Shown in pieces: positions 46,184 through 62,354 of a stretch of 64,000 bases of DNA. This DNA is from an uncultured Candidatus Saccharibacteria bacterium (GTDB taxonomy: Bacteria; Patescibacteriota; Minisyncoccia; Phycocordibacterales; UBA6065): positions 84,054 through 148,053 of the forward strand of contig CAZBVG010000001.1 in NCBI GenBank assembly GCA_964495425.1, read 5' to 3'. Every line of letters starts with the position of its first letter. Within the stretch, counting starts at the first letter, position 1. The position numbers and the translations under genes were made by a program. Under the pieces are notes generated by a model. That model searched no databases, was not told the DNA's origin, and saw only the letters and a program-made list of their open reading frames with translations.

Positions 46184-46564
46184 CTACGACCTGGTTTGTT
46201 GTGAAGTGGGTGTCTCCATTATCACCCGCTCTACTTTACGCCATGGATTAGCGGCATCACGAAATCGATCAATAATTCGATCAATTACCTTGTTATCCGC
46301 TGCATCCCTTTCTCTATAGCCGGCCGCTCGCAGGAGCGCTGTTGGATTAGACGTCCTGTGCGTATCAAAAAGAAACACTTCAAATTCTCGCGTCTTCCCT
46401 TCTACTTCGATGCGAATATATACTTTTGTACGAGCGTGATCAATTTTCTTTTGATCCCGATCTGAGAGAGTATATGTTACCGGCTCTGCGGACAATGCGG
46501 ACAGAGCCAGTACAGTGCCCAAGATGCTGAAAGTAAGGGCGACCAGAAGTGTGCATTTTTTCAT
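46184..46564 (-). CDS. Small secreted hypothetical protein inserted between secY and adk
   Basis: The start is taken at the MKKCTLLVALTFSILGTVLALSALSA signal peptide, giving a mature part of about 100 aa with no motifs. Confidence 0.4.
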   Translation of the reverse strand: MKKCTLLVALTFSILGTVLALSALSAEPVTYTLSDRDQKKIDHARTKVYIRIEVEGKTREFEVFLFDTHRTSNPTALLRAAGYRERDAADNKVIDRIIDRFRDAANPWRKVERVIMETPTSQQTRS

Positions 46565-46878
46565 GATGTGGGAGCTTTCGGGGTATTTTGAGATTAACAG
46601 GCGGCTTACTGCCACCCAAGATAAAAGCATCAATGAGGTCGGAATAGTTGCGCCTTTTGCAAAACTGCAAAAGTGCAATATTCATATCGAAAACCTTTTT
46701 GTTAGTTGGTCTACGAGCTTTACCTAACGCCTGGCGAAACGCTCCAACCCGATCAGCAAGTTGAGCGGTGCAACACCGTTCCCTTTGTAGAAGTATCGAA
46801 ATGAGTTGAGATCGTGTGAGTCTCATGGTTGTAAGGGTCGAGTCTGAAGTTAATTCTCCATGGTTGTCACTCAAAGTC

Positions 46879-46914
46879 AAAGGCCCGGATCGCGTACGCG
46901 ATCCGGGCCTTTTC
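46879..46914. terminator. Bidirectional GC-rich hairpin terminator downstream of secY
   Basis: GGCCCGGATCGCG-TAC-GCGATCCGGGCC with flanking T-runs. Confidence 0.6.
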
Positions 46915-46922
46915 CCTAGAGA

Positions 46923-48194
46923 TTAGTACTCTCGCATTGAAACCTGAGCATCAAGCTTCTTTACAATATCGAGCACCACAGAAACTGCAATGAGAAGTCC
47001 TGTTCCACCAACCGCAAGAGTTGTGAGACCAGACGCCGATCGCAAAATAAGTGGCAATACCGCAATGATACCGAGAAAGAGTGCGCCTACAAGAGTGATT
47101 CGAGTTACGATCTTCGAGAGATGTTCCGCCGTTGACTGACCAGGTCGAACACCAGGAATAAACGCTCCTGACTTCTGAAGATTCTCAGAAATCATCATTG
47201 GATCAAACGTAACTGCTGTGTAGAAGTACGTGAAGACAAATACAAGGAGGAAATATCCAATATTGTAAAGCAAATGATTGTTCAATATTGAAGTACCAAC
47301 CTGAGAAATATGAAGAAGTGTTGCGTTCGTAGAAGTCGAGAGGAAATTAAAGATCATCTGCGGAAAAAGAAGGATTGAAAGCGCAAAGATGATTGGAATA
47401 ACGCCTGCCTGATTAAGACGAAGTGGAAGATATGTTGAAACACCACCATATACCTTCATACCTCGAACTTGCTTGGCATACGTAACTGGAATTGGTCTTT
47501 CTGCCTCGGTGATAACAACAACGGCATAAATAACCACAAGAGCAAGAGCAACGATACCAATATAGATTGGAAGCTGGCTTGGATCATATGCAGCGATTGC
47601 ACCCGAAAGCGCTTGCGGCATGCTTGCAACGATACCCGCAAAAATAATAAGTGATGTTCCGTTACCCAAACCGAATTCAGTAATAAGTTCACCAATCCAC
47701 ATAAGGAGAAGTGAGCCGCCGGTAATTACGAGTACATTGAGAAGAAGTCCAAAGGTATCAAGTTCTGGCAAGATTCCCTGTCGCTGGAAAATAACGATAA
47801 AGCTGAATGCCTGAATGAGGGCAAGCGGGAGTGCGAGTCGTCGTGAGTACTGCGCAAACTTTACTCGTCCCGCCTCACCTTCTTCCTGGTACATCGCCTT
47901 AAGCTTTGGCGACATAATCGTCAAAAGCTGCATGATGATAGATGCAGTAATATATGGACCAACACCAAGCATCACAATTGAGAGCTTTGAAAGTCCACCT
48001 CCAGAAAAAAGGTTAAGGAGACCGAAAAACTGATTGTCGCTGAAAAGCCTTGCTAGCTGTACGGTATCAATACCTGGAATTGGAATAACAGTAAGAAGTC
48101 TGAACGCAATGAGCGCAAGAACAACAAACAAGATGCGTTTGCGAAGGCTCTTATCTCGGAATATGTGAGAGAGTTTGCTTATGAATGCGTTCAT
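46923..48194 (-). CDS. secY: Preprotein translocase subunit SecY
   Basis: 423 aa with 10 TM helices, in the conserved SecY position after rplO. Confidence 0.9.
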   Translation of the reverse strand: MNAFISKLSHIFRDKSLRKRILFVVLALIAFRLLTVIPIPGIDTVQLARLFSDNQFFGLLNLFSGGGLSKLSIVMLGVGPYITASIIMQLLTIMSPKLKAMYQEEGEAGRVKFAQYSRRLALPLALIQAFSFIVIFQRQGILPELDTFGLLLNVLVITGGSLLLMWIGELITEFGLGNGTSLIIFAGIVASMPQALSGAIAAYDPSQLPIYIGIVALALVVIYAVVVITEAERPIPVTYAKQVRGMKVYGGVSTYLPLRLNQAGVIPIIFALSILLFPQMIFNFLSTSTNATLLHISQVGTSILNNHLLYNIGYFLLVFVFTYFYTAVTFDPMMISENLQKSGAFIPGVRPGQSTAEHLSKIVTRITLVGALFLGIIAVLPLILRSASGLTTLAVGGTGLLIAVSVVLDIVKKLDAQVSMREY

Positions 48195-48214
48195 GGTGTT
48201 TTAAATTGTAACGT

Positions 48215-48649
48215 TTAAGCGTGCACTGTACCACCTGCCTTTTCAATTGCTTCCTTTGCGCTAGCTGAGATTTCACAACCAGAAACAGTGAGTTTCTTGG
48301 TAATCTCGCCGCCTGAGAGAATCTTGATTCGTGGGAAATTTCCTTCGGTTCGTTCAACAACACCCTTTGCTACAAGAGTTGCAGGCTCTACTCGCTCGCC
48401 CGCCTTGAATGCCTTCTCAATTGATGAGAGGGCAACCGGAACTGCTTTTGGAGCAAATGACTTGAATGCGTAACCGCGAAGCTTTGGCATTCGCTTAATG
48501 AAATCTCGAATTTCTGGGCGCTTCTTTCGTCCAGCTCGAGCATTTTGACCCTTGGTACCTCGACCAGAAGTCTTGCCACGCTTTCCACCGCGACCAATTG
48601 ATCGTCGCTTGTAGTTAGGGCTCTTTCGTTTGAGTTCGTTAATCTTCAT
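48215..48649 (-). CDS. rplO: 50S ribosomal protein L15
   Basis: 144 aa, Gly/Arg-rich N-terminus. Confidence 0.85.
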   Translation of the reverse strand: MKINELKRKSPNYKRRSIGRGGKRGKTSGRGTKGQNARAGRKKRPEIRDFIKRMPKLRGYAFKSFAPKAVPVALSSIEKAFKAGERVEPATLVAKGVVERTEGNFPRIKILSGGEITKKLTVSGCEISASAKEAIEKAGGTVHA

Positions 48650-48660
48650 AAATATGGATG

Positions 48661-49269
48661 TTACTTCTTGGTTGATACAGGTCGAGTGAGAGTGAGATTC
48701 TCGAGAGCTGCGATAGTTGCTCGTGCAATGTTGAGCTTGTTCTTTGATGGAGAAACAATCTTTGCTGCAACATTTTTAAGACCAGCGAGTTCAAGTACGG
48801 TTCGGGTTGCAGAACCAGCAACAAGACCTCGATCCTTTACAGGGCGGATAGAAACTCGAGCTGATGAATATTTAGCAAACACTTCGTGAGGGATAGACAT
48901 ATCCTTGGTCGTATTGATTTTGACCATATGCTTCTTTGCATTTCGGGTTGCCTTGTCGATAGCGAGTGCTGTATCAGCGGCTTTTCCAAGACCAACACCT
49001 ACCATTCCCTTTCGATTACCTGCAACGAGTGCTACAGAGAAAGCGAATCGTCGTCCACCTGAAACCACTCGGGCTACTCGTCGAATATTAAGCATCACTG
49101 AATCATATTCAGGCTTTGTTCGTGGAGCTCGGGTATCTGGCTTTCGTGGGCCACGTCCTCGTGCGCCGCCTCGAGGAGCTCGTTCACCTCGTGCTTCAGA
49201 AGGTGCTGCTGCAACAGGAGCTACCGCAGCCACTTCAACATTATTTACTTCGTTTACGTCTGGATTCAT
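48661..49269 (-). CDS. rpsE: 30S ribosomal protein S5 with a low-complexity N-terminal extension
   Basis: 202 aa. The S5 dsRBD and C-domain are preceded by about 55 aa of Ala/Pro/Arg-rich sequence. Confidence 0.85.
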   Translation of the reverse strand: MNPDVNEVNNVEVAAVAPVAAAPSEARGERAPRGGARGRGPRKPDTRAPRTKPEYDSVMLNIRRVARVVSGGRRFAFSVALVAGNRKGMVGVGLGKAADTALAIDKATRNAKKHMVKINTTKDMSIPHEVFAKYSSARVSIRPVKDRGLVAGSATRTVLELAGLKNVAAKIVSPSKNKLNIARATIAALENLTLTRPVSTKK

Positions 49270-49277
49270 ATGATTAA

Positions 49278-49637
49278 TTAGAATTTAAGTCCGCCTTCGC
49301 GTGCACCGTCTGCCAAAGACTTCACTCGACCCTTGAAACCGAAACCACCTCGATCAAACACAACTGACTTGATCTTGAGTGCAAGTGCTTTTTCAGCAAT
49401 CGCCTTTCCTACAGCAAATGCAGCGTCGCCCTTCTTTACACCTTTCTTAGCTGCCTTTTTGCCTCCGTGAGAAGAAGCTGAGGCAAGCGTCTTTGATGTC
49501 GTGTCATCGATAAGCTGAGCGTACATGAATCGATTTGATCGGAAGATCGCAAGTCGAGGTGTAGCCGAAGTGCCTGATACGCGAGTTCGTATCTTTGTAT
49601 GTCGTCTTATTCTCTTTTCTTTCTTGATGTTTTTCAT
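49278..49637 (-). CDS. rplR: 50S ribosomal protein L18
   Basis: 119 aa. Confidence 0.85.
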   Translation of the reverse strand: MKNIKKEKRIRRHTKIRTRVSGTSATPRLAIFRSNRFMYAQLIDDTTSKTLASASSHGGKKAAKKGVKKGDAAFAVGKAIAEKALALKIKSVVFDRGGFGFKGRVKSLADGAREGGLKF

Positions 49638-49658
49638 ATGTGAAAATTGAGATTAAGA

Positions 49659-50186
49659 TTACGCTGCTTTCTTACCCTGCTTGCGTCTGATAACTTCACC
49701 ATCATATCGGATACCCTTACCCTTATATGGCTCTGGCTTCTTGAGGGCTCGAACCTTTGATGCGAAACCACCAACTTTCTCGTTAGAGACACCAGAAACG
49801 GTGATAATGTTCTTTTCTGCGGTTACCTTGAGATCCTTTGGAATTTCAATTGAAATTGGGTGTGAAAAACCAAGAGAAAGATCAAGTTTTGCACCCTTAA
49901 CATCTGACTTAAAGCCGATGCCTTCTACAATAAGTTTCTTCTGAAAACCGGTGGTTACACCCTTAATCATATTCTTGATATGAGAAGCGTATGTTCCCCA
50001 GAGCATGTAGTCTTCTGGTCGCTTGAGATTTACAAGGACTGTTCCGTTTTCAACTTTGATTTCAACACCTGACTTGAAATCTCGAACCATTTCACCCAAT
50101 GGTCCTTTAACAGTAAGAGTTGTTCCGTTCATTGCGACGGTGGTCTTCTCTGGAATTATGATTGGCTTTTTTGCTACTCGTGACAT
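49659..50186 (-). CDS. rplF: 50S ribosomal protein L6
   Basis: The start is taken at MSRVAKKPIIIPE. The longer listed ORF start overlaps rpsH. Confidence 0.85.
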   Translation of the reverse strand: MSRVAKKPIIIPEKTTVAMNGTTLTVKGPLGEMVRDFKSGVEIKVENGTVLVNLKRPEDYMLWGTYASHIKNMIKGVTTGFQKKLIVEGIGFKSDVKGAKLDLSLGFSHPISIEIPKDLKVTAEKNIITVSGVSNEKVGGFASKVRALKKPEPYKGKGIRYDGEVIRRKQGKKAA

Positions 50187-50208
50187 TGTAGTGTTGTTAT
50201 TAAAAGTA

Positions 50209-50598
50209 TTACCAGATCTGGAAGAGAATTTCACCGCCGACCTTTTCTTTTCGAACTTCATCATCCGAAAGGATACCCTTTGGAGTAGAGACGAATGTTG
50301 AACCGTAGCCCTGCTTTACCTGATGAATTTCAGAATAGCCTTTGTAGAGTCGCTTTGAAGGCTTTGAAAGTCGCTTCACATCGGTGATGCGAGGATTCTT
50401 ACCGTTGTAGATAATGCCAATCTCGAGAGTCTTCTGAACCGCCTTACCCTTCTTAACAGGAGGCTTAACATATCCCTTTCGAGCGAGAGCTTCTGCTACT
50501 TTCTCAATAAAGTTTGAGTGCGCGATTGTAACCGCATCCTTGCCTGCGCGAGATGCGTTCTTGAGTTGAATGATGAGATGTGAGATTGAGTCTTGCAT
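50209..50598 (-). CDS. rpsH: 30S ribosomal protein S8
   Basis: 129 aa. Confidence 0.85.
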   Translation of the reverse strand: MQDSISHLIIQLKNASRAGKDAVTIAHSNFIEKVAEALARKGYVKPPVKKGKAVQKTLEIGIIYNGKNPRITDVKRLSKPSKRLYKGYSEIHQVKQGYGSTFVSTPKGILSDDEVRKEKVGGEILFQIW

Positions 50599-50669
50599 AT
50601 TCGTTAGCGTCTAGGTTTGGGTCGTAACTTATGTGATCATCCCTTACCTACTGCCTAATTAATAAATGT

Positions 50670-50855
50670 TTACCAAGAAGACTTTTTAATACCTGGAATG
50701 AGACCGTCATTCGCAAGTTCCCGGAAGCAGATTCGGCACATACCGAAGTCTCGCATAAAACCATTCTTTCGTCCGCAACGGAAACAACGTCGAACAATTC
50801 TCGATGAGAACTTCGGTTTCTTGTTTGCTCGTGCAACTACTGATGTTTTAGCCAT
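50670..50855 (-). CDS. rpsZ: 30S ribosomal protein S14, type Z (zinc-binding, 61 aa)
   Basis: [46 protein letters not shown], with CxxC...CxxC. Confidence 0.85.
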
Positions 50856-50949
50856 ATTCTGCTGAGGTAAAATAAAAAGCCCTTGAAAAAGCTTGTCCAG
50901 GCATACTAGCAAACAGTTTTAAGGGTGTCAAATACCTTCATGCTGATAT

Positions 50950-50976
50950 AAAAAGCCCCGTTGAAACGGGGCTACT
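50950..50976 (-). terminator. Intrinsic terminator immediately after the inserted ORF
   Basis: On the minus transcript the sequence is GCCCCGUUUCAACGGGGC followed by UUUUUAU. Confidence 0.55.
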
Positions 50977-50977
50977 C

Positions 50978-51406
50978 TTACTCTTTTTGAGTGCTTTTCT
51001 TACTTGGAGCAGGATAGGTTGGCTCGTGGCGGGCAACGAACTCTTCACCCTCACGGAATGGCATGAGCCAGCAAAAACCCGAAAGATACCGGTCATGAAT
51101 GAGAATACACTCAGGATCATCATCTCCCATGCACTCAATGGAATTTTCATTTCCATAGCGTGCCTGCAAATAATGCAAAAGCGTTTTCATACTTAGATTC
51201 TGATCCAGAACGACCGTCCACCCTACTGTGACACCCACAGGTTCATTATTTCGGAAGTAATATCCAAAAAACCGAGGCGGTATAAATGTGCCAGAACATC
51301 GAAGCAGCTTGAGCTGCTCATTTACATATCCCACAAAACCACACCGGTATGGAAAATCGAACCGTAGAGGAAAACATTCAAAGGGAATGATATGTGTGTT
51401 TTTCAT
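50978..51406 (-). CDS. Hypothetical protein inserted between rplE and rpsZ
   Basis: A 142-aa ORF in the same orientation as the operon. GC-rich, around 57%. Cys-, Phe- and Tyr-rich with no motif. Terminators flank it on both sides. Confidence 0.45.
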   Translation of the reverse strand: MKNTHIIPFECFPLRFDFPYRCGFVGYVNEQLKLLRCSGTFIPPRFFGYYFRNNEPVGVTVGWTVVLDQNLSMKTLLHYLQARYGNENSIECMGDDDPECILIHDRYLSGFCWLMPFREGEEFVARHEPTYPAPSKKSTQKE

Positions 51407-51460
51407 GTAAAAGTAATCTCGTCCTATAATGCCAAGAATCGCGAACGTGTCAATTACAAG

Positions 51461-51490
51461 AAAAAACCACCTTGTCGGTGGTTTTTTCTT
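51461..51490 (-). terminator. Intrinsic terminator after rplE
   Basis: On the minus transcript the sequence is AACCACCGACAAGGUGGUU followed by UUUUUCUU. Confidence 0.55.
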
Positions 51491-51495
51491 GTAAT

Positions 51496-52050
51496 TTACT
51501 TCGCTGCTCCGTCTTTCTTGATTGGGAATCCGAGAATTTCGAGGAATTTCTTGGTCTGTTCCTTTTCTTTGAGGTTAGTAACAACTGTTACACCGAGACC
51601 GAATACATCCTTGAGTTCTTCTTCAGATGTTTCTGGGAAGATTGAGTGTTCCTTGATACCGATTGAGTATCCACCCATTCCGTCAGCTGAGGTTGAAGGA
51701 AGCCCACGGAAGTCCTTTGTTCGAGGAAGTGCAATGTGCACGAGCTTCTCGAGGAAGTGCCACATCTTTTCTCCTCGGAGAGTTACCTGGTAACCCATTG
51801 GATCTCCTTCTCGTGACTTGAAAGAAGCAATAGACTTTTTTGCACCTCGGAGAACTGGCTTCTGACCAGTGATTTTCATAATTCGATCGCCGGCGAGTTC
51901 AACCTTCTTCTTGTCCTTGAATGAACCAACACCTACAGATACAACAACCTTAAGTACCTTTGGTGCCTGCATTGCATTTTCAAGCTTGAACGACTTCTTC
52001 ATCGTTTCAAATGCGTGTGCCTGCTTTTCTTTGAGAGTATGAGTTTTCAT
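51496..52050 (-). CDS. rplE: 50S ribosomal protein L5
   Basis: 184 aa. Confidence 0.9.
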   Translation of the reverse strand: MKTHTLKEKQAHAFETMKKSFKLENAMQAPKVLKVVVSVGVGSFKDKKKVELAGDRIMKITGQKPVLRGAKKSIASFKSREGDPMGYQVTLRGEKMWHFLEKLVHIALPRTKDFRGLPSTSADGMGGYSIGIKEHSIFPETSEEELKDVFGLGVTVVTNLKEKEQTKKFLEILGFPIKKDGAAK

Positions 52051-52069
52051 AAAAGTATTCTAGGAAAGA

Positions 52070-52285
52070 TTATTTCTTCGCGACGTTAGATGCGTGAAGC
52101 GGCATTTCCTTATCGACAACCTGGCCCTTGCTTCCCTGCTTTGTAGGGCGCATATGTCGCTTCATCTTGTTAACACCAGAAACAACAACTTTATTTTCCT
52201 TAGGAAAAGCGTGAATAACTTCACCAGTTGCTCCCTTGTCTTTGCCTGCGAGTACCACTACCTTGTCTCCTTTTTTGATATGCAT
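52070..52285 (-). CDS. rplX: 50S ribosomal protein L24 (short form)
   Basis: 71 aa with the KOW motif [14 protein letters not shown]. Confidence 0.8.
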
Positions 52286-52306
52286 AGAAGTATTTGTTAG
52301 TGGTTA

Positions 52307-52678
52307 TTAAACGATTTCTGCCGCTCGAGAAGCGATAGTCTGGAAACCTTTCTCAGCGATTTCTCGTGGAATAGGACCGAATACTCGACCAGCAAGAGGC
52401 TCCTTCTTACCCTTTTCAAGGATAACGACTGCATTTTCATCAAATCGGATGTATGAGCCATCCTTTCGCTTGGTTGCATTCACAGATCGAACAACTACTG
52501 CGTGGAGCACATCCTTCTTCTTAACAGACTTTCGTGGTTCTGCTTTCTGAACTGAAAGCACAACAATATCTCCTACCATTGCGTAGCGCTTTGCTGCTGA
52601 TCCGAGCACTTTGAAAATTCGTCCGATCTTTGCACCGGAGTTGTCAGCGATTATTACTATTGAGCGTGGTTGTAGCAT
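52307..52678 (-). CDS. rplN: 50S ribosomal protein L14
   Basis: 123 aa. Confidence 0.9.
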   Translation of the reverse strand: MLQPRSIVIIADNSGAKIGRIFKVLGSAAKRYAMVGDIVVLSVQKAEPRKSVKKKDVLHAVVVRSVNATKRKDGSYIRFDENAVVILEKGKKEPLAGRVFGPIPREIAEKGFQTIASRAAEIV

Positions 52679-52696
52679 GGTAGTTGTTGTTAAAAA

Positions 52697-52981
52697 TTAG
52701 AGAACCTTGAAATGCTTGTCCTTAGAGATAGGAGCACATTCAACGATCTCGACCTTATCACCTTCCTTCTTGGTGTTACCTGCATCGTGAGCCTTGTACT
52801 TCTTTGAGATCTTGAGGAATCGCTCGTACTTTGAGTGCTTTACGAATCGGTCAACCTTAACAACGATGGTGTCTTTCATCTTTGTTGAAGTTACGATACC
52901 AGAAAGTACCTTTGGTCGAGTATTTGAAGCCTCAGCCTTTACTTCCTTCTTCGTTTCGGTTTTTTTGCTAAATAGAGACAT
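52697..52981 (-). CDS. rpsQ: 30S ribosomal protein S17
   Basis: 94 aa. Confidence 0.85.
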   Translation of the reverse strand: MSLFSKKTETKKEVKAEASNTRPKVLSGIVTSTKMKDTIVVKVDRFVKHSKYERFLKISKKYKAHDAGNTKKEGDKVEIVECAPISKDKHFKVL

Positions 52982-52992
52982 GGTTTTGTAGA

Positions 52993-53418
52993 TTAGAGGA
53001 GTTCTCGAGAAATTACAACTGATTTAACAGGAAGCTTCGTTCCGCCCTTTCGGAGAGCTTCTCGAGCCATCTTCTCGTCAACACCGTCAACTTCGAAGAG
53101 AACACGACCTGGTTTTACTGGTGCGCAGTACCCCTGGAGGTCTCCCTTACCCTTTCCGAGCTTTACTTCGGCAGGCTTCTGGGTGTATGGCATATCTGGG
53201 AAGATTCGAATCCAAATCTTTCCGTTCTTACCTACTTCTCGAGAGATAACCTTTCGAGCTGATTCGATCTGCTCAGAGCGAATTCGCTCAGCTGAAATAG
53301 CCTTAAGACCAAATGATCCGAATGAGAGGGTTGTGCCGCGAGTTTCGAATCCAACCTTCTTTGGATTCTTTCGCATGACGTGCCACTTACGATATTTAAC
53401 TTTTTTAGGGACTAGCAT
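52993..53418 (-). CDS. rplP: 50S ribosomal protein L16
   Basis: 141 aa. Only 11 nt separate it from rpsQ, and no rpmC lies between. Confidence 0.9.
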   Translation of the reverse strand: MLVPKKVKYRKWHVMRKNPKKVGFETRGTTLSFGSFGLKAISAERIRSEQIESARKVISREVGKNGKIWIRIFPDMPYTQKPAEVKLGKGKGDLQGYCAPVKPGRVLFEVDGVDEKMAREALRKGGTKLPVKSVVISRELL

Positions 53419-53429
53419 GGCAGTTTAAA

Positions 53430-54101: not shown

Positions 54102-54105
54102 ATGT

Positions 54106-54492: not shown

Positions 54493-54497
54493 ATATT

Positions 54498-54845
54498 TTA
54501 TTTATCCTTCTTTTCAGCAGCAGCGCCCTTTGCAGCCTGAGCAGCAGCAATTTCACCTTCCTTCTTCTTCTGTTCGAGTTCCTTCTGCATCTTACCGCCG
54601 TGCTTGGTGAACTTGCGGGTCAAAGAAAATTCGCCGAGTCTGTGTCCCACCATATCCTCTGACACAAGTACCTCGACGAAGTCTTTACCGTTATGAACGC
54701 CAAACTTAAAGCCGACCATTTCAGGTGAAATGTGGCATGCTCGGAGCCAGGTCTTAATAACCCCAGTTGTCTGAGGTTTCTTTCCTTCGATCTTCTTGAG
54801 AAGTCGTGGATCTACGTTTGGTCCTTTTGAAAGGGATCGGGTCAT
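54498..54845 (-). CDS. rpsS: 30S ribosomal protein S19 with an Ala/Lys-rich C-terminal tail
   Basis: 115 aa. Confidence 0.85.
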
Positions 54846-55038
54846 GGAATTTTAGTTTCTGGCAATGAATTACAGCTCGGGCGTCTGGGCTATAGTTGCT
54901 AGAACAACTGTAGTGAAGCAAAAATCTAGGTTTTACCCTAGATTCCTGGTCTAGTGCCCATTCCGAAGCTAGTGTGAGTATCCTAACAGAACGAGTTTTA
55001 AAGTCAAATATATTCCGAAAAATCCTTACAATTCTTTG

Positions 55039-55911
55039 CTAATCGCATGAATATCGCGAAGCATCTAAATAGTGAACCGCAGCTGCTGCATGCACAGTTC
55101 CTAGACCGGGCCCAGTCTCATAAATGTTATCGCATAATCCCCCATCTCTTTGCATGAGACCATCATTTGCCTCGAGTTTTGTATACAAAATATATGACTG
55201 AGAACCGATAAGTGGATCGTTAGGCGCCTCGTACACATACATATGGAATGTACCTGGCGTGCTGCCAGTATTTAATGGATCAAGAGGAACTGATGGCAGA
55301 AAACCCTCATTAACTAAATTTCCGGTGCCATCAACTGGACAGTACGGAGACATTGATGGATCAGTATTCATCTTTAAGAAATATTGCGGTACGACTGACC
55401 AAGCAAAATTATTTAGATTAGGGGTATTACCGTTATATGACCACAATGCGTAGCACGGATAATGCCCGTGCGCATCATAGAAAAATTCCATAGCGGTTTT
55501 AATGGTATTCAAATCTCGTAAACGCGCAGAATCACGAGATTTCTGTCGAGCTGAATTAAACGACGTCATCACTATCGTTGCCAAAATGCCAATAATCGCG
55601 ATGACAACCAAGAGCTCAAGGATAGTAAATCCCCTTTTGAATGTTTTACTATGAAACTTATCGAGTTTTCGCGTGACCGCCAATAGGAGTACAACGATTA
55701 TATAAGTCCCTACCACCTCAAGAGGAATGACATAACGTGAATCAAAAACAAAAGGCAAAACGACCGCGAGAATGAACACATACACCGTCCATGCCATGAC
55801 ATATACCTCCCCAAACCGCGCGTGCGCGTGGTGCTGCTTAAAGCGCAAAGATTCCTTTTCTACACAATAAATGATGAGTACAGAACAATATATGGTGGCA
55901 ATAATGCTCAT
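55039..55911 (-). CDS. Type IV pilin / pseudopilin-like protein inserted between rplB and rpsS (5' end uncertain)
   Basis: It contains KRG|FTILELLVVIAIIGILATIV, the prepilin peptidase cleavage and N-methylation motif, followed by a roughly 200-aa globular domain with C-terminal Cys pairs. The open frame continues upstream through three or four TM helices and into rplB. The start was placed at the first in-frame ATG downstream of rplB. A TTG start at 55683 would give a short leader. Confidence 0.55.
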   Translation of the reverse strand: MSIIATIYCSVLIIYCVEKESLRFKQHHAHARFGEVYVMAWTVYVFILAVVLPFVFDSRYVIPLEVVGTYIIVVLLLAVTRKLDKFHSKTFKRGFTILELLVVIAIIGILATIVMTSFNSARQKSRDSARLRDLNTIKTAMEFFYDAHGHYPCYALWSYNGNTPNLNNFAWSVVPQYFLKMNTDPSMSPYCPVDGTGNLVNEGFLPSVPLDPLNTGSTPGTFHMYVYEAPNDPLIGSQSYILYTKLEANDGLMQRDGGLCDNIYETGPGLGTVHAAAAVHYLDASRYSCD

Positions 55912-56125
55912 TACCCCCGTCTGAACGAGGAGTCCTTTTGTGTACACATCGTATGCAACAAGCACGAAAAAAACGGCGGCCCAAAAATTGGCGAAAAGTC
56001 GCCAAAAACGAATAGTACAGATCTTCTCAAAAAATTTTGAACGATGCCTCACACATGAATTGTAACATGTGCTTGGTATGTATAGACAAACAAAAACGGC
56101 CCTTGTTGGGCCGCTTTTGCGAGTA

Positions 56126-56980
56126 TTACTGAACGTTGTTTCGATCCTTTCCAACCTTTCGGCGAGAAACGATGAATACGTTTGAGTACTTCTTTGGAGT
56201 TCGAGTCTTCTGTCCCTTACCTGCTGGCTTACCCCATCGAGTCTTAAGTCTTCGGAGACCTCGTCCCTGTCGTCCTTCTCCACCACCGTATGGATGGTCT
56301 ACTGGGTTCTGAGCAGTACCTCGAACGGTTGGTCGAATACCAAGCCATCGTGATCGTCCTGCTTTACCAGAGTTAACGAGCCAATGCTCATCGTTAGAAA
56401 CGGTACCTACAGTTGCGTAGCACTCTTCATGAACTCGTCGCACTTCAGAAGAAGGCATCTTGATCATAGTGTAGCTCTGGTCGTTACCGATAACCTGAGC
56501 GAAGATTCCAGCTGCTCGAGCTGCTTTTGCGCCAGAATTTGGCTTGAGCTCAATATTGTACACAAAGGTACCTACAGGGATCTTCTTGAGTGGAAGTGCG
56601 TTACCTGGCAAAAGTGGTGCCTGTGCGCCCGCCACGATCGTTGTACCTGGTTTTACGCCCTTTGGAAGGAGAACATATCGTCGTTCACCATCTCGATATG
56701 CTACAAGTCCAATGAAACCTGATCGGTTTGGATCGTATTCAACTGATTTAACAGTTGCTGGAATATCTCGCTTGTCATACGCGAATGACACATCTCGGTA
56801 GAGTCGCTTGTGTCCACCTCCCTTGTGTCGAACCGTAACTCGTCCGAATGAGTTTCGTCCTACATCTCGCTTTCGTCCGAATGTAAGTGACTTTTCAGGA
56901 TCCTTCTTCGTGATGTACTGCTTGAAGTCGATGGTCTGCATCTGACGACGTCCTGGGCTTGTTGGTCTATATGTTTTCAT
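56126..56980 (-). CDS. rplB: 50S ribosomal protein L2
   Basis: 284 aa. Confidence 0.9.
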   Translation of the reverse strand: MKTYRPTSPGRRQMQTIDFKQYITKKDPEKSLTFGRKRDVGRNSFGRVTVRHKGGGHKRLYRDVSFAYDKRDIPATVKSVEYDPNRSGFIGLVAYRDGERRYVLLPKGVKPGTTIVAGAQAPLLPGNALPLKKIPVGTFVYNIELKPNSGAKAARAAGIFAQVIGNDQSYTMIKMPSSEVRRVHEECYATVGTVSNDEHWLVNSGKAGRSRWLGIRPTVRGTAQNPVDHPYGGGEGRQGRGLRRLKTRWGKPAGKGQKTRTPKKYSNVFIVSRRKVGKDRNNVQ

Positions 56981-56998
56981 ATATGTGGATTAATAAAA

Positions 56999-57460
56999 TT
57001 AAATGAATTCAATGGTCTCGCCCTTCTTGATATAGACGTACGCCTTCTTGCCAGAAACAGTTCGACCTGACTTACCGCGAGCAAACATTGTCTTTGACTT
57101 TACTGGAGCTACAGACACTCGTACTGGAGTAACCTTATACGCTGCCTTGATCGCGTCAGAGATCTGTCGAGTGTTTGCGTCAACTCGAACATCAAACGTA
57201 TATACTCCATTCTGTGAGAGAAGTCCTGCCTTTTCAGTAACTCGTGGCTTTATAACCGCTGAGTTCTTTGGAAACACAACACCTGCTGCTGCAGCTGCGC
57301 GTTTCTCATTCTTTGACTCAGCCTTCTTTTCCTTAACAACCTTTTCAGTCTTCACCTTCTTTGGCTCAACAACCTTGGTTGCCTTAACAGGCTTTGCGAG
57401 CTTTGTTTCACCCGCTGTTGTGCTACCAGCCTTTTTTCTCTGTGTGTTAAATAGCGACAT
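56999..57460 (-). CDS. rplW: 50S ribosomal protein L23 with a Lys-rich N-terminal extension
   Basis: The L23 core is at the C-terminus, preceded by about 60 aa of Lys/Ala/Val-rich low-complexity sequence. The start was taken at MSLFNTQ to avoid overlap with rplD. Confidence 0.75.
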   Translation of the reverse strand: MSLFNTQRKKAGSTTAGETKLAKPVKATKVVEPKKVKTEKVVKEKKAESKNEKRAAAAAGVVFPKNSAVIKPRVTEKAGLLSQNGVYTFDVRVDANTRQISDAIKAAYKVTPVRVSVAPVKSKTMFARGKSGRTVSGKKAYVYIKKGETIEFI

Positions 57461-57461
57461 G

Positions 57462-58199
57462 TTAGTTGAGTTTATTTTCAATAAGTTTGATTGATTCGAC
57501 CGGATTCTCGATAACAACGTAGGTATACTTCAAAAGATCCAAAAGGTTTATGTTTCGAACCTCATCAACCATAACCGAACCAACGTTTCGGAAGCTCTTC
57601 TCAGTATTCACATCTTTCTTTGAAAGACCGATGAATGCTGAATTCTTTCGCTTTGTTGCAAGCTTTTCAAAACCCTTTGCCTTTGAGAGACCTTCGAGTG
57701 CTGCAACTGCCTCAGCTGTCTTTGGAGCATTGAATGAAAGTGAATCAACAAAGAGCACTTCGCCATCCTTGTACTTCTTTGAGAGAAGTGTGAGGAATGC
57801 CTTAGCCTTCATTGTCTTGTTAACCTTTCGGTCGTAGTTCTTATCATTTCGAGGACCATGAGCAATACCTCCACCTACCCAGATCGGTGATCGAGTAGAT
57901 CCGTGTCGAGCACGACCTGTACCCTTCTGTCTCCATGGCTTCTTACCACCTCCAGATACCTCACCTCGAGTCTTGGTGTGAGCAATGTTCTGTCGAGCTG
58001 TCGACATCATTGAGTGCATAACCTGATGAACGAGGTCAGCATTCCAAGAAAGACCAAAAGCCTTTTCTGAAAGCTGCACTGTTCCCGCTGATGCGCCTTT
58101 GATATTAAAGATTGGTGCTTCCATAGATGCGTTCTCCTTTGCCACCTTTGGTGCCTTTACTGTCTTTGTTACTGCCTTTTTTGTTGTTGTAGTTTTCAT
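57462..58199 (-). CDS. rplD: 50S ribosomal protein L4
   Basis: 245 aa. Confidence 0.85.
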   Translation of the reverse strand: MKTTTTKKAVTKTVKAPKVAKENASMEAPIFNIKGASAGTVQLSEKAFGLSWNADLVHQVMHSMMSTARQNIAHTKTRGEVSGGGKKPWRQKGTGRARHGSTRSPIWVGGGIAHGPRNDKNYDRKVNKTMKAKAFLTLLSKKYKDGEVLFVDSLSFNAPKTAEAVAALEGLSKAKGFEKLATKRKNSAFIGLSKKDVNTEKSFRNVGSVMVDEVRNINLLDLLKYTYVVIENPVESIKLIENKLN

Positions 58200-58210
58200 G
58201 GTGGTTATGA

Positions 58211-58834
58211 TTACGCAACGATAGATACAAGCACACCCTTTCGACCAGGAAGAGATCCGTGCACTACGATTTCATTAGACTCAGGCTTTACCTGAAGAAC
58301 CTTGAGGTTCTTAACGGTGACCATGTCGCCACCCATTCGTCCTGGCATTCGCTTGCCCTTGTTAACACGACCTGAACCGACGCGGCCTCGGCCGTTAATA
58401 GAACCAACTTCTCGCTCAGAGTGTTTCTGACCGTGAGTTCGTGAACCTCCCTTGAAGTGATGTCGCTTAACAGCACCCTGGAAGCCCTTACCCTTTGATT
58501 CTGATCGAACAGTTACATTGTCGCCTGCAGCAAAAGTTGAGAGATCAATTTTATCTCCTACCTTAAACTTTGACGCTTCCTCTGTTCGGAATTCGCCCAT
58601 ATGTCGGAAAGATCCATTCGCATTCTTGAGATGACCTTTAACCGCCTTTGAAAGTCGGAATTCTTTTTGTTCACCGAAACCAACCTGAAGACCAGCATAA
58701 CCGTCCTTCTCTACCGTCTTTACCTGGGTAACCGTGACAGGACCTGCTGAAAGAACCGTTGCAGGATATGCACGGCCGTTTTCATCAAAAATCTGTGTCA
58801 TGGCTACTTTCGTGCCAAGTATGAATTTCTTCAT
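58211..58834 (-). CDS. rplC: 50S ribosomal protein L3
   Basis: The start is taken at MKKFILGTKVAMTQIFDENG. The longer listed ORF start is an upstream extension. Confidence 0.85.
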   Translation of the reverse strand: MKKFILGTKVAMTQIFDENGRAYPATVLSAGPVTVTQVKTVEKDGYAGLQVGFGEQKEFRLSKAVKGHLKNANGSFRHMGEFRTEEASKFKVGDKIDLSTFAAGDNVTVRSESKGKGFQGAVKRHHFKGGSRTHGQKHSEREVGSINGRGRVGSGRVNKGKRMPGRMGGDMVTVKNLKVLQVKPESNEIVVHGSLPGRKGVLVSIVA

Positions 58835-58988
58835 AGCAGTTGTATTACTAAATCGTTTAGCGCGAGCGCGGAACTTGAGGCTCCGTAGGCTCTCTAAAAC
58901 CTTATAATTAAAAAGAAGCTCCTGCTTCTCTCGTGGCGAACATAGTACCTTAAAGGTCGGAATATTGCAAATATGGTGTAGATGCAAT

Positions 58989-59016
58989 AAAAAAGGCGCG
59001 CGTATCCTCGCGCGCC
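58989..59016 (-). terminator. Intrinsic terminator after the inserted ORF and upstream of rplC
   Basis: On the minus transcript the sequence is GGCGCGCGAGGAUACGCGCGCC followed by UUUUUUAUU. Confidence 0.55.
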
Positions 59017-59023
59017 CGTCTAT

Positions 59024-59395
59024 TTACACGAATATTGAATCCGGATTTCGATCCAGAACGAAGGAAAAGAGATCGACGATAGCCGGGGCTTTATCATTGA
59101 GCGGAATGAACTTAATCTCGTAATATTCAATCGGATCCTCTTCCTTGAGGTCATGATTGATCCTAAAAGCCAGCTCTACGACTGGTACCCGCTGAATAAA
59201 TTTAGCCCTGATTCGCTCAATCGCCTCCTTGTCATCCCGTGCTGTAAGCACAATAGGATGTGGACGCTTCGAAATCGTGATGATATTTCGCACCTTCTCC
59301 CCATTATCACCATTCTCATGAGCTGGAGGATGAAGCACCTGATGCTCTGCCTCTATCGTAAGATATGGTTCCCACACTATTGCTACATAGGTCAT
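59024..59395 (-). CDS. Hypothetical protein inserted between rpsJ and rplC
   Basis: A 123-aa ORF in operon orientation with no motif and flanking terminators. Confidence 0.45.
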   Translation of the reverse strand: MTYVAIVWEPYLTIEAEHQVLHPPAHENGDNGEKVRNIITISKRPHPIVLTARDDKEAIERIRAKFIQRVPVVELAFRINHDLKEEDPIEYYEIKFIPLNDKAPAIVDLFSFVLDRNPDSIFV

Positions 59396-59449
59396 AAGTG
59401 GACTCTCCTTTCTCTACCATACTCTTTCTATTCAAAAAAGAAAAGTGTG

Positions 59450-59489
59450 CAAAACAAAACACCGCGCTAGATGCGCGGTGTTTTGTTTG
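59450..59489. terminator. Bidirectional intrinsic terminator after rpsJ
   Basis: AACACCGCGC-TAGAT-GCGCGGTGTT between A- and T-runs. Confidence 0.55.
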
Positions 59490-59870
59490 TTAAATCATCT
59501 TAACGTCGATGTTTACTCCTGAAGGGAGAGACATATTCGTAAGAGCTTCGATTATTTTTGCATTAGGATTCAAGATATCGATGAGTCGCTTGTGCACTCG
59601 CATCTCAAACTGCTCTCGCGCATTTTTATAGACGAATGACGAGCGGTTTACCGTATATTTCTTGATTTCCGTAGGAAGAGGTACTGGACCAAGAACCTGG
59701 ACGTCATAGCGGAGAGCTGTATCGATGATCTGCTTTACCGATGCGTCGAGGATTTTGTTCTCGTACGCTCGAACGCGGATTCGAAGTCGAGGTGATGCGT
59801 CAGCTTTGACTGCTGCCTTTTTAGGAGCTGCCTTTGCCTTGCCCACTGTCTTTTTAATTGCTTCTGCCAT
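59490..59870 (-). CDS. rpsJ: 30S ribosomal protein S10 with a basic N-terminal extension
   Basis: 126 aa. Confidence 0.85.
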   Translation of the reverse strand: MAEAIKKTVGKAKAAPKKAAVKADASPRLRIRVRAYENKILDASVKQIIDTALRYDVQVLGPVPLPTEIKKYTVNRSSFVYKNAREQFEMRVHKRLIDILNPNAKIIEALTNMSLPSGVNIDVKMI

Positions 59871-59911
59871 AGTTAGGTCCTAGTCTAGTTAATTCTGCTT
59901 AAATTGCAAGT

Positions 59912-61105
59912 TTACTTAACGATTTTCGTTACAACACCTGCACCGACAGTCTTGCCACCTTCTCGGATAGCGAAGCGCTGCTTATCTTCCAAAGCGATTG
60001 GAGCATGGAGCTTTACCTTGAAGGTAACAGTGTCTCCAGGCATAACCATTTCAACACCAGGGTTGAGAGTTACTTCACCTGTAACGTCCGTTGTTCGAAC
60101 GTAGAACTGAGGCTTGTAACCATTGAAGAATGGAGTATGTCGACCTCCTTCTTCCTTCTTGAGGATGAGCACTTCTGCTTCGAACTCAGTATGAGGAGTT
60201 GTTGATCCTGGCTTTGCGAGAACCTGTCCTCGGTGAACAGCATCCTTTGCAGTACCTCGGAGGAGAATACCAGCGTTGTCTCCTGCCATACCTGACTGGA
60301 GCTGCTTGTTAAACATTTCGATACCAGTAACGGTAGTCGTTGTGGTGTCTTTGATACCAACAATTTCAACGGTATCTCCAACCTTTACCTGACCTCGTTC
60401 AATACGACCGGTAACCACAGTTCCTCGACCTTCGATTGAGAAGATGTCTTCGATAGGCATAAGGAATGGCTTGTCGGTAGCTCGTTCCGGCATAGGAATA
60501 TAGGTGTCGAGGGTATTCATGAGATCCTTGATCTTCATTGCCCACTCGTCTGTATTGTTAGCCGCCTCAAGAGCCTTGAGAGCTGATCCTCGGATAACTG
60601 GAGTAGCTGCACCGTCGTAACCGTACTTCGTGAGAAGGTCTCGAACTTCACCTTCAACGAGGTCGATCAAGTCTTTGTCTTCTACAGCGTCGCACTTGTT
60701 AAGGAAAACTACGATTCGTGGCACACCAACCTGCTTTGCAAGAAGGATGTGTTCTCGAGTCTGTGGCATCGGACCGTCAATTGCTGACACTACGAGTATA
60801 GCACCGTCCATTTGAGCGGCACCGGTGATCATGTTCTTAATGTAGTCAGCGTGACCTGGGGCGTCGATGTGAGCGTAGTGTCGAGAGTTTGACTCGTACT
60901 CTACGTGAGCGAGAGAAATAGTAACAACTTTAGATGCATCTCGAACAGTACCACCCTTAGCGATATCTGCGTATGCCTTTCCAACTGCCAAACCATCACG
61001 AGCTTGTGTCGCGAGGATCGCGGTCGTCAAAGTCGTCTTGCCGTGGTCAACGTGGCCAATAGTACCTACGTTAACGTGCGGCTTTGTTCGTGCGAATTCT
61101 GCCAT
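59912..61105 (-). CDS. tuf: Elongation factor Tu
   Basis: 397 aa. [14 protein letters not shown]-like and NKCD motifs. Confidence 0.95.
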
Positions 61106-61338
61106 AACGTTTTTGGTAAGTTCACTCGGATCTACGCGCGAGATGGTTGCAGATCCCAGTTACTTACAAATTAATGTTCTAAGTTTGATAATCTTTCTTC
61201 AAAAATCTTACTTCTTACGGTTTGATCAATTGAAAAAAGCGCGCAAATTGCGTGAATCACATAATAGCAGACGGAAAGGCAAAGTCAATCAGCGGCGAAA
61301 TGGCACCACACATAAGAAAAAGCCGCCTTTACAGACGG

Positions 61339-61818
61339 CTACATTGAGACCACATAGACTTCCACGAGCACTATCCCACTTTGAGCAAGATCAGGATTCT
61401 TGAGACTCGGCTCAATCGATATGGTATATCCCCCTTTCGCAAAGCCCATCAAAACGGCGGCATCAAAACCTCCTTCGGCGAGTGCAAATGCACCCACCTT
61501 CGATTCAATCTGGCGCATCTCCTTCACTGAAACACTTTCAGGACCTTGCTGCCAATCATCGTTACGATAGATTTCAGTTAAGCCCTTTCGAATGATGAAA
61601 GCGGGATCAGGCAAACAAGCTCGAGTTGTAAATTGCTGTAAACTCGGACCAACAACACGGATAAGAAGAAGGCACCTGTCGACACCAACCGTGAATCCTG
61701 AAACGGCGAGCTGACCTTCTCCTACAGAAAGAATGGTAGACACATTCTGGACTCCACTCCTCTCTGCCGCGGTACACACCAAACAAAAACATATAAGGGT
61801 ACACAGAAAGTGACTCAT
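61339..61818 (-). CDS. Secreted protein, single-domain paralog of the 43030..43920 family
   Basis: The start is taken at the MSHFLCTLICFCLVCTAAERSG signal peptide. The shared motifs LLIRVVGPSL, VGAFAL and GIVLVEVY match those of the duplicated protein at 43030..43920. Confidence 0.5.
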   Translation of the reverse strand: MSHFLCTLICFCLVCTAAERSGVQNVSTILSVGEGQLAVSGFTVGVDRCLLLIRVVGPSLQQFTTRACLPDPAFIIRKGLTEIYRNDDWQQGPESVSVKEMRQIESKVGAFALAEGGFDAAVLMGFAKGGYTISIEPSLKNPDLAQSGIVLVEVYVVSM

Positions 61819-61933
61819 AGAATGAACGACTTGCCTAGTAATACTCCTGTTTGAGGTAAACTTCAACTCCGTTGTACACAAAGCAAAAGGCGGTGCATAG
61901 GATGCAACCGCCTTGTTTGATCTTCACTCGATA

Positions 61934-62044
61934 TTAGTTATCGAAGTGAAAACCACCTTCATCCTCGTGGCCACTGGGGGCCCGGATGATAGCCACCACT
62001 TCACTCAGTAGCAACACGGCTACTAAGACAATGAACAGGTTCAT
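61934..62044 (-). CDS. 36-aa membrane peptide (copy 1 of tandem pair)
   Basis: The reverse complement reads MNLFIVLVAVLLLSEVVAIIRAPSGHEDEGGFHFDN. It lies below the ORF-track size cutoff and is followed by a hairpin terminator. Confidence 0.4.
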   Translation of the reverse strand: MNLFIVLVAVLLLSEVVAIIRAPSGHEDEGGFHFDN

Positions 62045-62139
62045 AATTACATATTATCATAATTTAATATAAAAGTCAAGCATATACCCCGCTCTTAGGG
62101 TAGCAAAAGGACGCTGTAAACAGCGTCCTTTGAAATTCC

Positions 62140-62250
62140 TCAGTGGAACTTGTGATAACCGGAGTCATCCTCGTACCCCTCCTCGGAAGTAAGGAGAGCG
62201 TATGTCAGTGTAGCTGCGCAAAAGAGTATGACCCATACTAGAATATTCAT
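62140..62250 (-). CDS. 36-aa membrane peptide (copy 2 of tandem pair)
   Basis: The reverse complement reads MNILVWVILFCAATLTYALLTSEEGYEDDSGYHKFH. Its length and architecture are the same as copy 1, and it is followed by a hairpin terminator. Confidence 0.4.
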   Translation of the reverse strand: MNILVWVILFCAATLTYALLTSEEGYEDDSGYHKFH

Positions 62251-62354
62251 AATTCAAGAGATGGAACAAGCTGTACTTAGTATACACTTTTCTCTCTTTT
62301 TGTCTCCTTACTTATACACAAAACCACCCGCTTTCGCGGATGGTTTGTGTGTAT

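Follow-up and report, generated by a model that had tools for sequence, protein, structure and literature searches.

A probable lineage-specific re-partition of the str-S10-spc ribosomal superoperon, with variable gene inserts at five junctions, in Paceibacteria

Few bacterial gene orders are as conserved as that of the str-S10-spc superoperon, and one clade of the Candidate Phyla Radiation (CPR) has broken it at new places. We describe this here in a 64,000-nucleotide stretch of contig CAZBVG010000001.1 (hereafter the window), whose lineage belongs to Paceibacteria (Parcubacteria, CPR). Str operons ending in rpsJ (rpsL-rpsG-fusA-tuf-rpsJ) are found in cyanobacteria, plastids and archaea, and gene-flux hotspots flanked by core genes are a general feature of bacteria. 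Oliveira, Touchon, Cury and Rocha reportedly described such chromosomal hotspots of horizontal gene transfer (HGT) in 2017 (Nat Commun); we know of none described inside the ribosomal-protein (r-protein) superoperon. In CPR bacteria, Brown et al. reportedly found insertions in ribosomal RNA (rRNA) genes (Nature, 2015). Closest to the present case is the 'invasion-separation' of Gammaproteobacteria and Bacilli, in which a few genes enter the r-protein operon cluster; it recurs in particular lineages and has been interpreted as relaxed selection on concatenation (PMC8046335). An earlier note on this DNA had called the arrangement undescribed, which is partly right: invasion of the cluster as such is on record, but for these sites within operons and for CPR bacteria our literature search on interrupted ribosomal operons in CPR, Patescibacteria or Parcubacteria found no paper.

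In the window the cluster lies entirely on the minus strand and five of its junctions are wide: fusA/tuf (1249 bp), rpsJ/rplC (655 bp), rplB/rpsS (1280 bp), rplE/rpsN (640 bp) and secY/adk (782 bp), against 1-71 bp at all others. Medians for the same junctions, taken over 84-112 outgroup loci, are 136, 57, -7, 8 and 21 bp, so small that the five-gap pattern is far from chance. The earlier note had named these five junctions, normally tight elsewhere, as carrying inserts, and was right on both points. Its insert coordinates hold as well, except at rpsJ/rplC, where the gap is 58835-59489 and not 58988-59489, because homology to rplC begins at the ATG at 58834 and a longer, TTG-started open reading frame (ORF) over-extends. 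The canonical operon borders are tight, with 41 bp at tuf/rpsJ and 18 bp at rpsQ/rplN (the S10/spc border), and show no promoter or terminator signals.

We consider it likely that the superoperon underwent a lineage-specific re-partition into independent transcription units, whose terminator-to-promoter spacers tolerate gene turnover. The predicted units are a first one ending in fusA, followed by tuf-rpsJ, rplC-rplB, rpsS-rplE, rpsN-secY and adk-map-ndk. New sigma-70-type promoters, each with a short 5' hairpin and a U-rich leader, would have arisen before tuf, rpsS, rpsN and probably rplC, and intrinsic terminators behind fusA, rpsJ, rplB, rplE and secY. Since the downstream block would have its own promoter, insertions into the spacer behind a terminator and ahead of the following promoter, and only there, would spare essential ribosomal genes from polar effects, and the spacers could act as neutral 'cargo bays' in which genes are gained, replaced and lost. 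In the window they would be filled with self-contained mini-genes, equipped with a promoter and/or terminator of their own.

The signals on which these units are predicted are numerous. Eleven predicted terminators, hairpins followed by a U-run with free energies of -13 to -34 kcal/mol, lie 3' of fusA, pep36b, pep36a, sec180, rpsJ, ORF123, rplB, rplE, ORF142, secY and sec126 (T1 to T11; Table 1), and with their GC stem-loop and U-tract after a stop codon they fit intrinsic (Rho-independent) terminators. A strong one stands upstream of each of the five inserts (T1, T5, T7, T8 and T10; -22 to -34 kcal/mol). Downstream, the bracketing announced by the earlier note applies to four inserts of five: nothing similar follows the stop codon of the pilin ORF (-1.7 kcal/mol), which runs directly into the rpsS promoter. 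Predicted sigma-70-like promoters downstream of the inserts face tuf, rplC, rpsS and rpsN. Such promoters and terminators would be expected to work in vivo, and the several independent units suggested by the earlier note agree, at the level of sequence, with the terminators and with the consensus promoters before tuf, rpsS and rpsN.

For comparison, about 160 relative loci centred on rpsC (labelled with L-numbers) were taken from species-representative genomes and metagenomes, and every junction was measured via tblastn with the window proteins. The clade consists of 26 loci whose RpsC is at least 60% identical to that of the window; the remaining loci, including several other CPR phyla, form the outgroup. 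Among species-representative genomes, JAIFWQ01 'Ca. Parcubacteria' (L001) is the closest, and after it come genomes that bear the labels Taylor-, Zambryskii- and Nomurabacteria. Identity of r-proteins to those of the window is 92% for L172/L163, 88% for L167, 84% for L001, 73% for L083 and about 60% for the others, giving the order ((window, L172/L163), L167), L001, L083, rest. An exact look-up of the RpsN and RpsJ sequences for more sister genomes yielded nothing beyond L001 and the species of the window itself. We call a gap of 400 bp or more enlarged; such gaps occur at rplB/rpsS in 11 of 16 clade loci against 0 of 112 in the outgroup, at rplE/rpsN in 9 of 19 (outgroup 0/84), at rpsJ/rplC in 7 of 12 (2/82), at fusA/tuf in 5 of 7 (4/24) and at secY/adk in 4 of 13 (2/35). 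The adk/map junction is enlarged in 3 of 10 clade loci (0/27); each remaining clade junction is enlarged in none or one.

The control elements are also specific to the clade. A strict promoter motif (TTGAC[ATC]-N16-18-TAnn[AT]T, at most 200 nt upstream of the gene) precedes rpsS in 21 of 23 clade loci and rpsN in 16 of 19, as against 0/111 and 0/84 in the outgroup, and is essentially never found upstream of other cluster genes. Terminator-like elements, counted when a hairpin and U-run lie within 70 nt after the stop codon, follow rplB in 7/16 clade loci (outgroup 0/104) and rplE in 11/22 (outgroup 0/89); in the clade they also follow rpsJ (7/12), fusA (3/7) and secY (6/16), and none was found there after other r-protein genes or tuf. 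L001 and L083, each with most sites empty, retain the promoter and leader of tuf, rpsS and rpsN as well as terminators after rplB and secY at their empty sites, which argues that these elements were not delivered by the cargo. The tuf promoter with its leader of about 150 nt (61106-61288) is kept in both, including the empty site of L001, where T1 is absent and the promoter abuts the fusA stop codon. The rpsS promoter with its structured leader of about 130 nt (54846-55007) is kept in L001, L083 and L172, the rpsN promoter at the empty site of L001, and L001 has a canonical terminator at the position of T10. Because they are present clade-wide and at empty sites, the promoters predate the cargo and the superoperon would have been re-cut in the clade ancestor. 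The terminator-insulated landing sites of the earlier note have the order reversed: the promoter, and at rplB/rpsS also the terminator, was there without the insert.

Promoters and terminators might instead have come with earlier cargo, the empty sites being scars of cassette loss. Terminators after rplB and rplE are present in only about half of the clade loci, and empty sites (59-193 bp) still exceed the outgroup spacing, as this explanation would have it. Against it, the rpsS and rpsN promoters can be aligned across the clade (-35, extended -10 and 5' hairpin) whatever the cargo, and the promoter is kept even at gaps of 56-59 bp, where it overlaps the 3' end of rplB (L007, L087); we judge such an import quite unlikely.

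What lies between terminator and promoter changes nearly every time among relatives, and includes many ORFans. Cargo of the relatives encodes the toxin-antitoxin parts PemK, ParE and SocA_Panacea, a reverse transcriptase (RVT_1), ORF6N, DUF559, a TraG-like ATPase, an ECF sigma factor, a histidine kinase, kinases, a PIF1 helicase, CYTH, MOSC and pilin; of the mechanically called cargo ORFs, 48 are co-oriented with the cluster and 20 (about 30%) lie on the opposite strand. L001 fills rpsJ/rplC only, with an ORF123 homolog and an ORF6N gene, the other four sites measuring 61-193 bp, and L083 fills fusA/tuf only, where the genes encode an unrelated secreted protein of 326 aa and a membrane peptide of 64 aa. 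The sister species L172 carries three unrelated ORFs and no pilin at rplB/rpsS, and at rplE/rpsN a homolog of ORF142 accompanied by two or three more ORFs; ORF142 homologs occupy rplE/rpsN also in L163 and L167. A pilin is found at rplB/rpsS in L010, and a homolog of the four-transmembrane (4-TM) part of the window's pilin ORF upstream of rpsS in L012.

At the DNA level, the window and L172 are homologous in exactly three blocks, 58894-56115, 55011-51462 and 50935-46924 (82-87% identity), which stop at the upstream terminator and resume at the downstream promoter, the cargo between them being unalignable. Sliding-window DNA identity between the two is flat (0.71-0.94), tracks gene conservation and carries no information on recombination tracts beside the junctions. 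Cargo shared at the same junctions is 30-46% identical, against 84-92% for the flanking r-proteins, and its ages are nested: L001 shares ORF123, L163 and L167 share ORF142, and L164-L166 share sec126. The inserts are variable, partly inherited and fast-evolving. The cassettes thus vary, and the close relatives do not all share identical inserts, the finding that the earlier note had named as contrary to its view.

Chimeric contigs, a product of assembly or binning, would be the trivial explanation. Contigs of metagenome-assembled genomes (MAGs) are error-prone and conserved ribosomal genes could be mis-joined; yet the identical rpsJ-ORF123-rplC layout recurs exactly on six contigs from several samples and assemblers, so that the five-insert arrangement does not look like an artefact. 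Homologous cargo at the same junction in independent datasets, and the clean series of terminator, gene, terminator and promoter at each junction, also make an artefact extremely improbable.

The earlier note had proposed site-specific insertion as one origin. Site-specific delivery of mobile cassettes, whether integron-like, through a tyrosine or serine recombinase or by a transposon, would account for the reuse of the same five junctions in different genomes, for the compact, co-oriented and hairpin-ended inserts of the window, and for the RVT_1, TraG-like ATPase, ORF6N and toxin-antitoxin genes of some relatives. Reverse transcriptase, TraG/VirD4-like ATPase and toxin-antitoxin parts indeed lie in junctions of relatives (L006:14899-15876; L007:2209-4935; L011:3200-3526; L017:4744-5025; L088:4293-4817). 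Yet the short direct repeats that the earlier note proposed to look for around the cassettes were not found: over 44-64 kb, and at borders defined by alignment against the empty sites of L001 and L083, direct repeats and target-site duplications amounted to chance or low-complexity matches. No k-mer of at least 8 nt is shared at any border (only the low-complexity CTTTTTT and one 6-mer, TTTGCA), and no repeat family is common to the cassette ends. Among the ORFs of this 20-kb region, all accounted for, there is no integrase or transposase and no intI, nor is there an attI site; the hairpins at the cassette 3' ends are ordinary GC stems of unrelated sequence followed by U-runs, not attC sites, and target-site duplication, terminal inverted repeats and transposase, the hallmarks of insertion sequences and transposons, are all missing there. 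Both strands are used by heterogeneous cargo in relatives, GC content is host-like, and cargo has been inherited vertically while diverging in place. We regard a site-specific mechanism as very unlikely. Insert GC (0.42-0.47, against 0.446 for the region) led us to reject composition as evidence for recent horizontal transfer. What the junctions do share with HGT or gene-flux hotspots is that the accessory genes found in a given core-gene interval differ between relatives; cargo probably entered by ordinary illegitimate or homologous recombination. The other origin offered by the earlier note, a lineage-specific remodelling of r-protein regulation, is the one that fits.

Table 1. Positions of cluster genes, predicted units, inserts and predicted control elements in the window (TM, transmembrane; energies in kcal/mol; matches to the promoter consensus out of 12)
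Feature	Position	Strand	Remarks
fusA	62355-63989	-	3' 544 codons, cut by window end; from translation and Pfam EF-G domains, same contig
T1, after fusA	62316-62350	-	-23.1, U-run
pep36b	62140-62250	-	putative 36-aa ORF, one TM helix, acidic tail
T2, after pep36b	~62100-62131	-	-17.4
pep36a promoter-like site	62051-62079	-	9/12, with TG
pep36a	61934-62044	-	putative second 36-aa TM peptide, acidic tail
T3, after pep36a	~61878-61913	-	-17.5
sec180/159	61339-61818	-	small secreted protein; signal-peptide-like N-terminus from M22
T4, after sec180	61321-61340	-	
tuf promoter	61261-61288	-	TTGACT-16-TATTAT with TG; 10/12
tuf promoter-proximal hairpin	61222-61258	-	
tuf	59912-61105	-	
tuf-rpsJ unit	59490-61105	-	predicted; no terminator between the genes
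rpsJ	59490-59870	-	
T5, after rpsJ	59452-59488	-	-26.1; aligns with L083 empty site
ORF123	59024-59395	-	acidic cytoplasmic 123-aa protein; rpsJ/rplC insert
T6, after ORF123	58994-59017	-	-18.6
rplC promoter-like site	58942-58971	-	TTTGCA-18-TACTAT; site plus leader 58835-58971; weaker evidence than for rpsS and rpsN
rplC	58211-58834	-	
rplC-rplD-rplW-rplB unit	56126-58834	-	predicted
rplB	56126-56980	-	
T7, after rplB	56090-56120	-	-22.5; 13-bp stem; kept at L001 empty site
4-TM::pilin ORF	55039-56052	-	337 aa; rplB/rpsS insert; N_methyl motif 55567-55638
rpsS promoter	54980-55007	-	TTGACT-16-TAGGAT with TG; 9/12
rpsS promoter-proximal hairpin	54905-54942	-	
rpsS	54498-54845	-	
rpsS-rplV-rpsC-rplP-rpsQ-rplN-rplX-rplE unit	51496-54845	-	predicted
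rplE	51496-52050	-	
T8, after rplE	51454-51494	-	-26.2
ORF142 cassette	50954-51453	-	rplE/rpsN insert; predicted promoter 51426-51453 (TTGACA-16-CATTAT; 10/12, with TG), ORF142 50978-51406, T9
T9, after ORF142	50954-50973	-	
rpsN promoter	50903-50931	-	TTGACA-17-TAGTAT with TG; 10/12; promoter plus short leader 50856-50931, leader with hairpin and U-run
rpsN promoter-proximal hairpin	50868-50900	-	
rpsN	50670-50855	-	61-aa zinc type
rpsN-rpsH-rplF-rplR-rpsE-rplO-secY unit	46923-50855	-	predicted; no L30
secY	46923-48194	-	
T10, after secY	46879-46912	-	-34.1, weak U-run
Helix-turn-helix (HTH)-like ORF	46440-46826	-	frame of orf146; stretch of the two-frame arrangement 46440-46880; secY/adk insert
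sec126	46184-46564	-	126-aa secreted protein with signal peptide; secY/adk insert
T11, after sec126	46175-46197	-	
adk	45544-46140	-	
adk-map-ndk unit	44057-46140	-	predicted; end of cluster
ndk	44057-44698	-	

The contents of the inserts are diverse, and a Pfam scan of the non-ribosomal ORFs of 44-64 kb found only N_methyl and NDK. The fusA/tuf insert has two peptides of 36 aa with one helix each and a secreted protein of 159 aa (sec180), each with its own terminator. Pep36a and pep36b resemble each other weakly (24% identity, E 0.006), no homologs of either were found, and it is this resemblance and their promoter and terminator framing that mark them as putative coding ORFs. Their tandem layout, each framed by a promoter-like site and a terminator, recalls type I toxin genes. 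Sec180 is a single copy of a domain of about 130 aa without Pfam annotation, which gave 223 matches in a word-seeded search; among the 120 matches listed, it lies mostly at or near the C-terminus and is often present as two adjacent copies in large secreted proteins. It dominated our first search with the concatenated ORFans, and a search without it found no match at E ≤ 1 in a database that lacks even the self-matches. Two copies of the domain (similarity over 43177-43911) are also seen in a 348-aa ORF at 42874-43920 on the plus strand, convergent with ndk, with a GC content of 0.51 against 0.44 and a homolog at the equivalent place in L164 and L165.

ORF123 has a homolog at rpsJ/rplC of L001 (30% identity, E 3e-10) and is absent in L083; full HMMER found no further ones among 1.8 billion representatives. 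ORF142 had been described in the earlier note as GC-rich and as an ORFan. It is not GC-rich, with 0.438 against 0.446 for the region, nor a strict ORFan, as full HMMER on representatives brought up about 21 additional matching proteins (E ≤ 0.001). At secY/adk, the HTH-like ORF overlaps the first 40 or so codons of sec126 in another frame. Homologs of sec126 (39%) lie directly upstream of adk in L164-L166, where the orf146 frame is also kept (30% identity, E 3e-11), so that the two-frame arrangement is preserved. Full HMMER gave four relatives of sec126, and all aligned homologs have signal-peptide-like N-termini; this cargo is absent in L001 and L083.

The gene at rplB/rpsS was reported as pilin-like, which is correct for one part of it; the ORF as called joins a 4-TM protein of about 140 aa in frame to a pilin. 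Pfam N_methyl matches above the gathering score (E 7e-7) with the cleavage site KRG/FTILE (KRG/FTILELLVVIAIIGILA), and the ORF shows the class III pilin signal, G/F-x-x-x-E followed by a hydrophobic helix. Its C-terminal 200 aa or so are an ordinary CPR type IV pilin with 718 homologs, most of those listed measuring about 185-230 aa. Its N-terminal part of about 140 aa, with the four TM helices, is homologous to a stand-alone 141-aa protein, L012:143-568 (35%, 1e-21). These 140 or so residues precede the pilin cleavage site and the pilin part has no ATG of its own, although an in-frame TTG would give an 18-aa leader, a normal length where type IV pilins have short basic leaders of about 5-30 aa. 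The ORF would therefore encode a 4-TM::pilin fusion, or else the pilin may start at the internal TTG. Elsewhere in the window, at 304-7509 on the minus strand, a type IV pilus cluster encodes PilM, a 210-aa ORF, PilO, a 109-aa ORF, a PilB-type ATPase, a response regulator, a PilT-type ATPase and PilC (T2SSF).

Could the cargo be placed there for its function, either for high, growth-coupled expression with r-protein transcription or as ribosome-associated proteins offsetting the loss of L29 and L30? Absence of L30 is typical of CPR bacteria, and rpmC (L29) is missing in exactly this sub-clade: the rplP/rpsQ spacer has 11 nt (52982-52992) in the window and is similar in L001, L172/L163 and L167, no L29-like ORF was found anywhere in the 64-kb window, and L29 is present between rplP and rpsQ in L083 and all other clade loci. 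The pilin ORF without terminator that abuts the rpsS promoter, the recurrence of pilin and 4-TM genes at this junction in L010 and L012, and the cytoplasmic ORF123 and ORF142 at the same junctions across species would also suit a functional placement. Yet a strong terminator upstream of every insert speaks against expression by read-through, a separate promoter is predicted for most cargo, and much of the cargo is secreted, membrane-bound, or toxin-antitoxin or defence-like. It moreover evolves far faster than its flanks, is patchy among near relatives, and is acidic or neutral (pI 5.3 and 6.1), where ribosomal proteins are expected to be basic. We find such placement unlikely; the charge of the cargo, its rate of evolution and its patchy occurrence led us to reject the idea of new ribosomal proteins.

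Some features of the leaders are candidate regulatory elements. A hairpin of 4-8 bp with a U-run trails the promoter in 20/22 rpsS, 14/18 rpsN and 4/5 tuf promoters of the clade, while random 60-mers show one in 14% of cases; the 5' ends of ribosomal transcripts are thus expected to include some of the gap elements made of hairpin and U-run. Their distance from the -10 is 3-11 nt, and 36-38 nt in the rpsS leaders of the window, L001, L083 and L163; such modules stand upstream of rpsS, rpsN or tuf in the window as in L001-L018 and L083-L090. They could be 5' stabilisers or attenuators, and where relatives are most compact they could double as terminators of the unit before. The rpsS leader (54846-54975) shares a conserved consensus fold of several stems, with compensatory pairs, among the window, L172, L001 and L083, and is a candidate r-protein autoregulatory leader. 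In the rplC leader, a 40-nt block (58863-58902) is 95% identical in L001, against about 70% around it, and is also kept in L083; it may be a regulatory RNA or a protein-binding element. An Rfam scan of window positions 40000-64000 gave nothing above gathering, the best hit being L20_leader (33 against 58.7 bits) on the wrong strand.

Several points weigh against the re-partition as we describe it. The strict motif was found upstream of adk in 0 of 13 clade loci and weakly upstream of rplC (3/13). Promoters, terminators and unit borders are predictions, and transcription of the pilin gene, which has no terminator, may continue into the rpsS unit. The 26 clade loci are mostly MAG contigs, many of them incomplete, and kinship was taken from r-protein identity and not from a tree, so that gain versus loss at each node was settled by parsimony only. 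That relief from polarity made these sites permissive is, finally, something we infer.

Going beyond re-partition, the junctions may be recombination-driven cargo bays, with the r-protein genes, which are the most strongly conserved DNA of these genomes, as homology arms on which naturally competent, pilus-bearing episymbionts swap the terminator-to-promoter DNA between species, and with the promoter-hairpin-U module as a common control element. We offer this tentatively and hold it to be rather doubtful. If true, fast-evolving surface, secreted, toxin-antitoxin and defence genes, perhaps also newborn ORFs, would preferentially be tried there, and the promoter, 5' hairpin and U-run before tuf, rpsS and rpsN would be an undescribed shared control element of a re-cut ribosomal regulon.

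After ndk, the alpha operon (rpsM to rplQ) does not follow. Beyond the cluster lie a beta-CASP/RMMBL ribonuclease (40612-41973, minus strand), infC and rplL20 (L20) at 38258-39590 on the plus strand and a giant ORF of 2922 aa (26154-34922, minus strand).

The re-partition would show that this gene order is held by transcriptional and translational coupling and not by anything intrinsic, and offers a natural experiment on how operon architecture limits gene gain. It also flags candidate regulatory elements (the rpsS, rplC and tuf leaders and the promoter-proximal hairpin) and fast-evolving surface and secreted CPR proteins, and binning or phylogenomic pipelines that assume syntenic ribosomal blocks should expect breaks in this lineage.

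Set beside known systems, the inserts resemble integron cassettes in being short, mostly single-gene, co-oriented and hairpin-ended units at a fixed place; unlike in integrons, the 44-64 kb region has no intI, attI/attC-like cores or repeats, its hairpins are U-tailed, and most of its cargo has its own predicted promoter. Str operons ending in rpsJ likewise keep tuf and rpsJ as one unit apart from rplC onward, but they explain at most one of the five breaks and hold no variable cargo there. As with the rRNA insertions of CPR bacteria, interruptions are tolerated in translation loci that stay intact in other organisms; inside the rRNA genes they are introns or intervening sequences, many with homing endonucleases, whereas here whole genes stand between protein-coding genes. 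In hotspots of the kind attributed to Oliveira and colleagues, as here, a few core-gene intervals concentrate gain and loss, with diverse cargo often without mobile-element genes; what differs is that a single ribosomal cluster of 18 kb, in a small CPR genome, contains five of them. Closest remain the cases of invasion-separation, where a few unrelated genes are likewise inserted in an ultra-conserved ribosomal gene cluster. Those events fall mainly between canonical operons (rpoBC/str, str/S10), with one within rpoBC and transposable elements reported within operons (PMC8046335), whereas the window keeps tuf/rpsJ and rpsQ/rplN tight and breaks inside S10 (rpsJ/rplC, rplB/rpsS) and spc (rplE/rpsN), with clade-wide promoters at the new borders and sites refilled with different cargo in many species. 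These breaks inside S10 and spc, their clade-wide promoter marks and their reuse with different cargo in one CPR lineage are what is new here.

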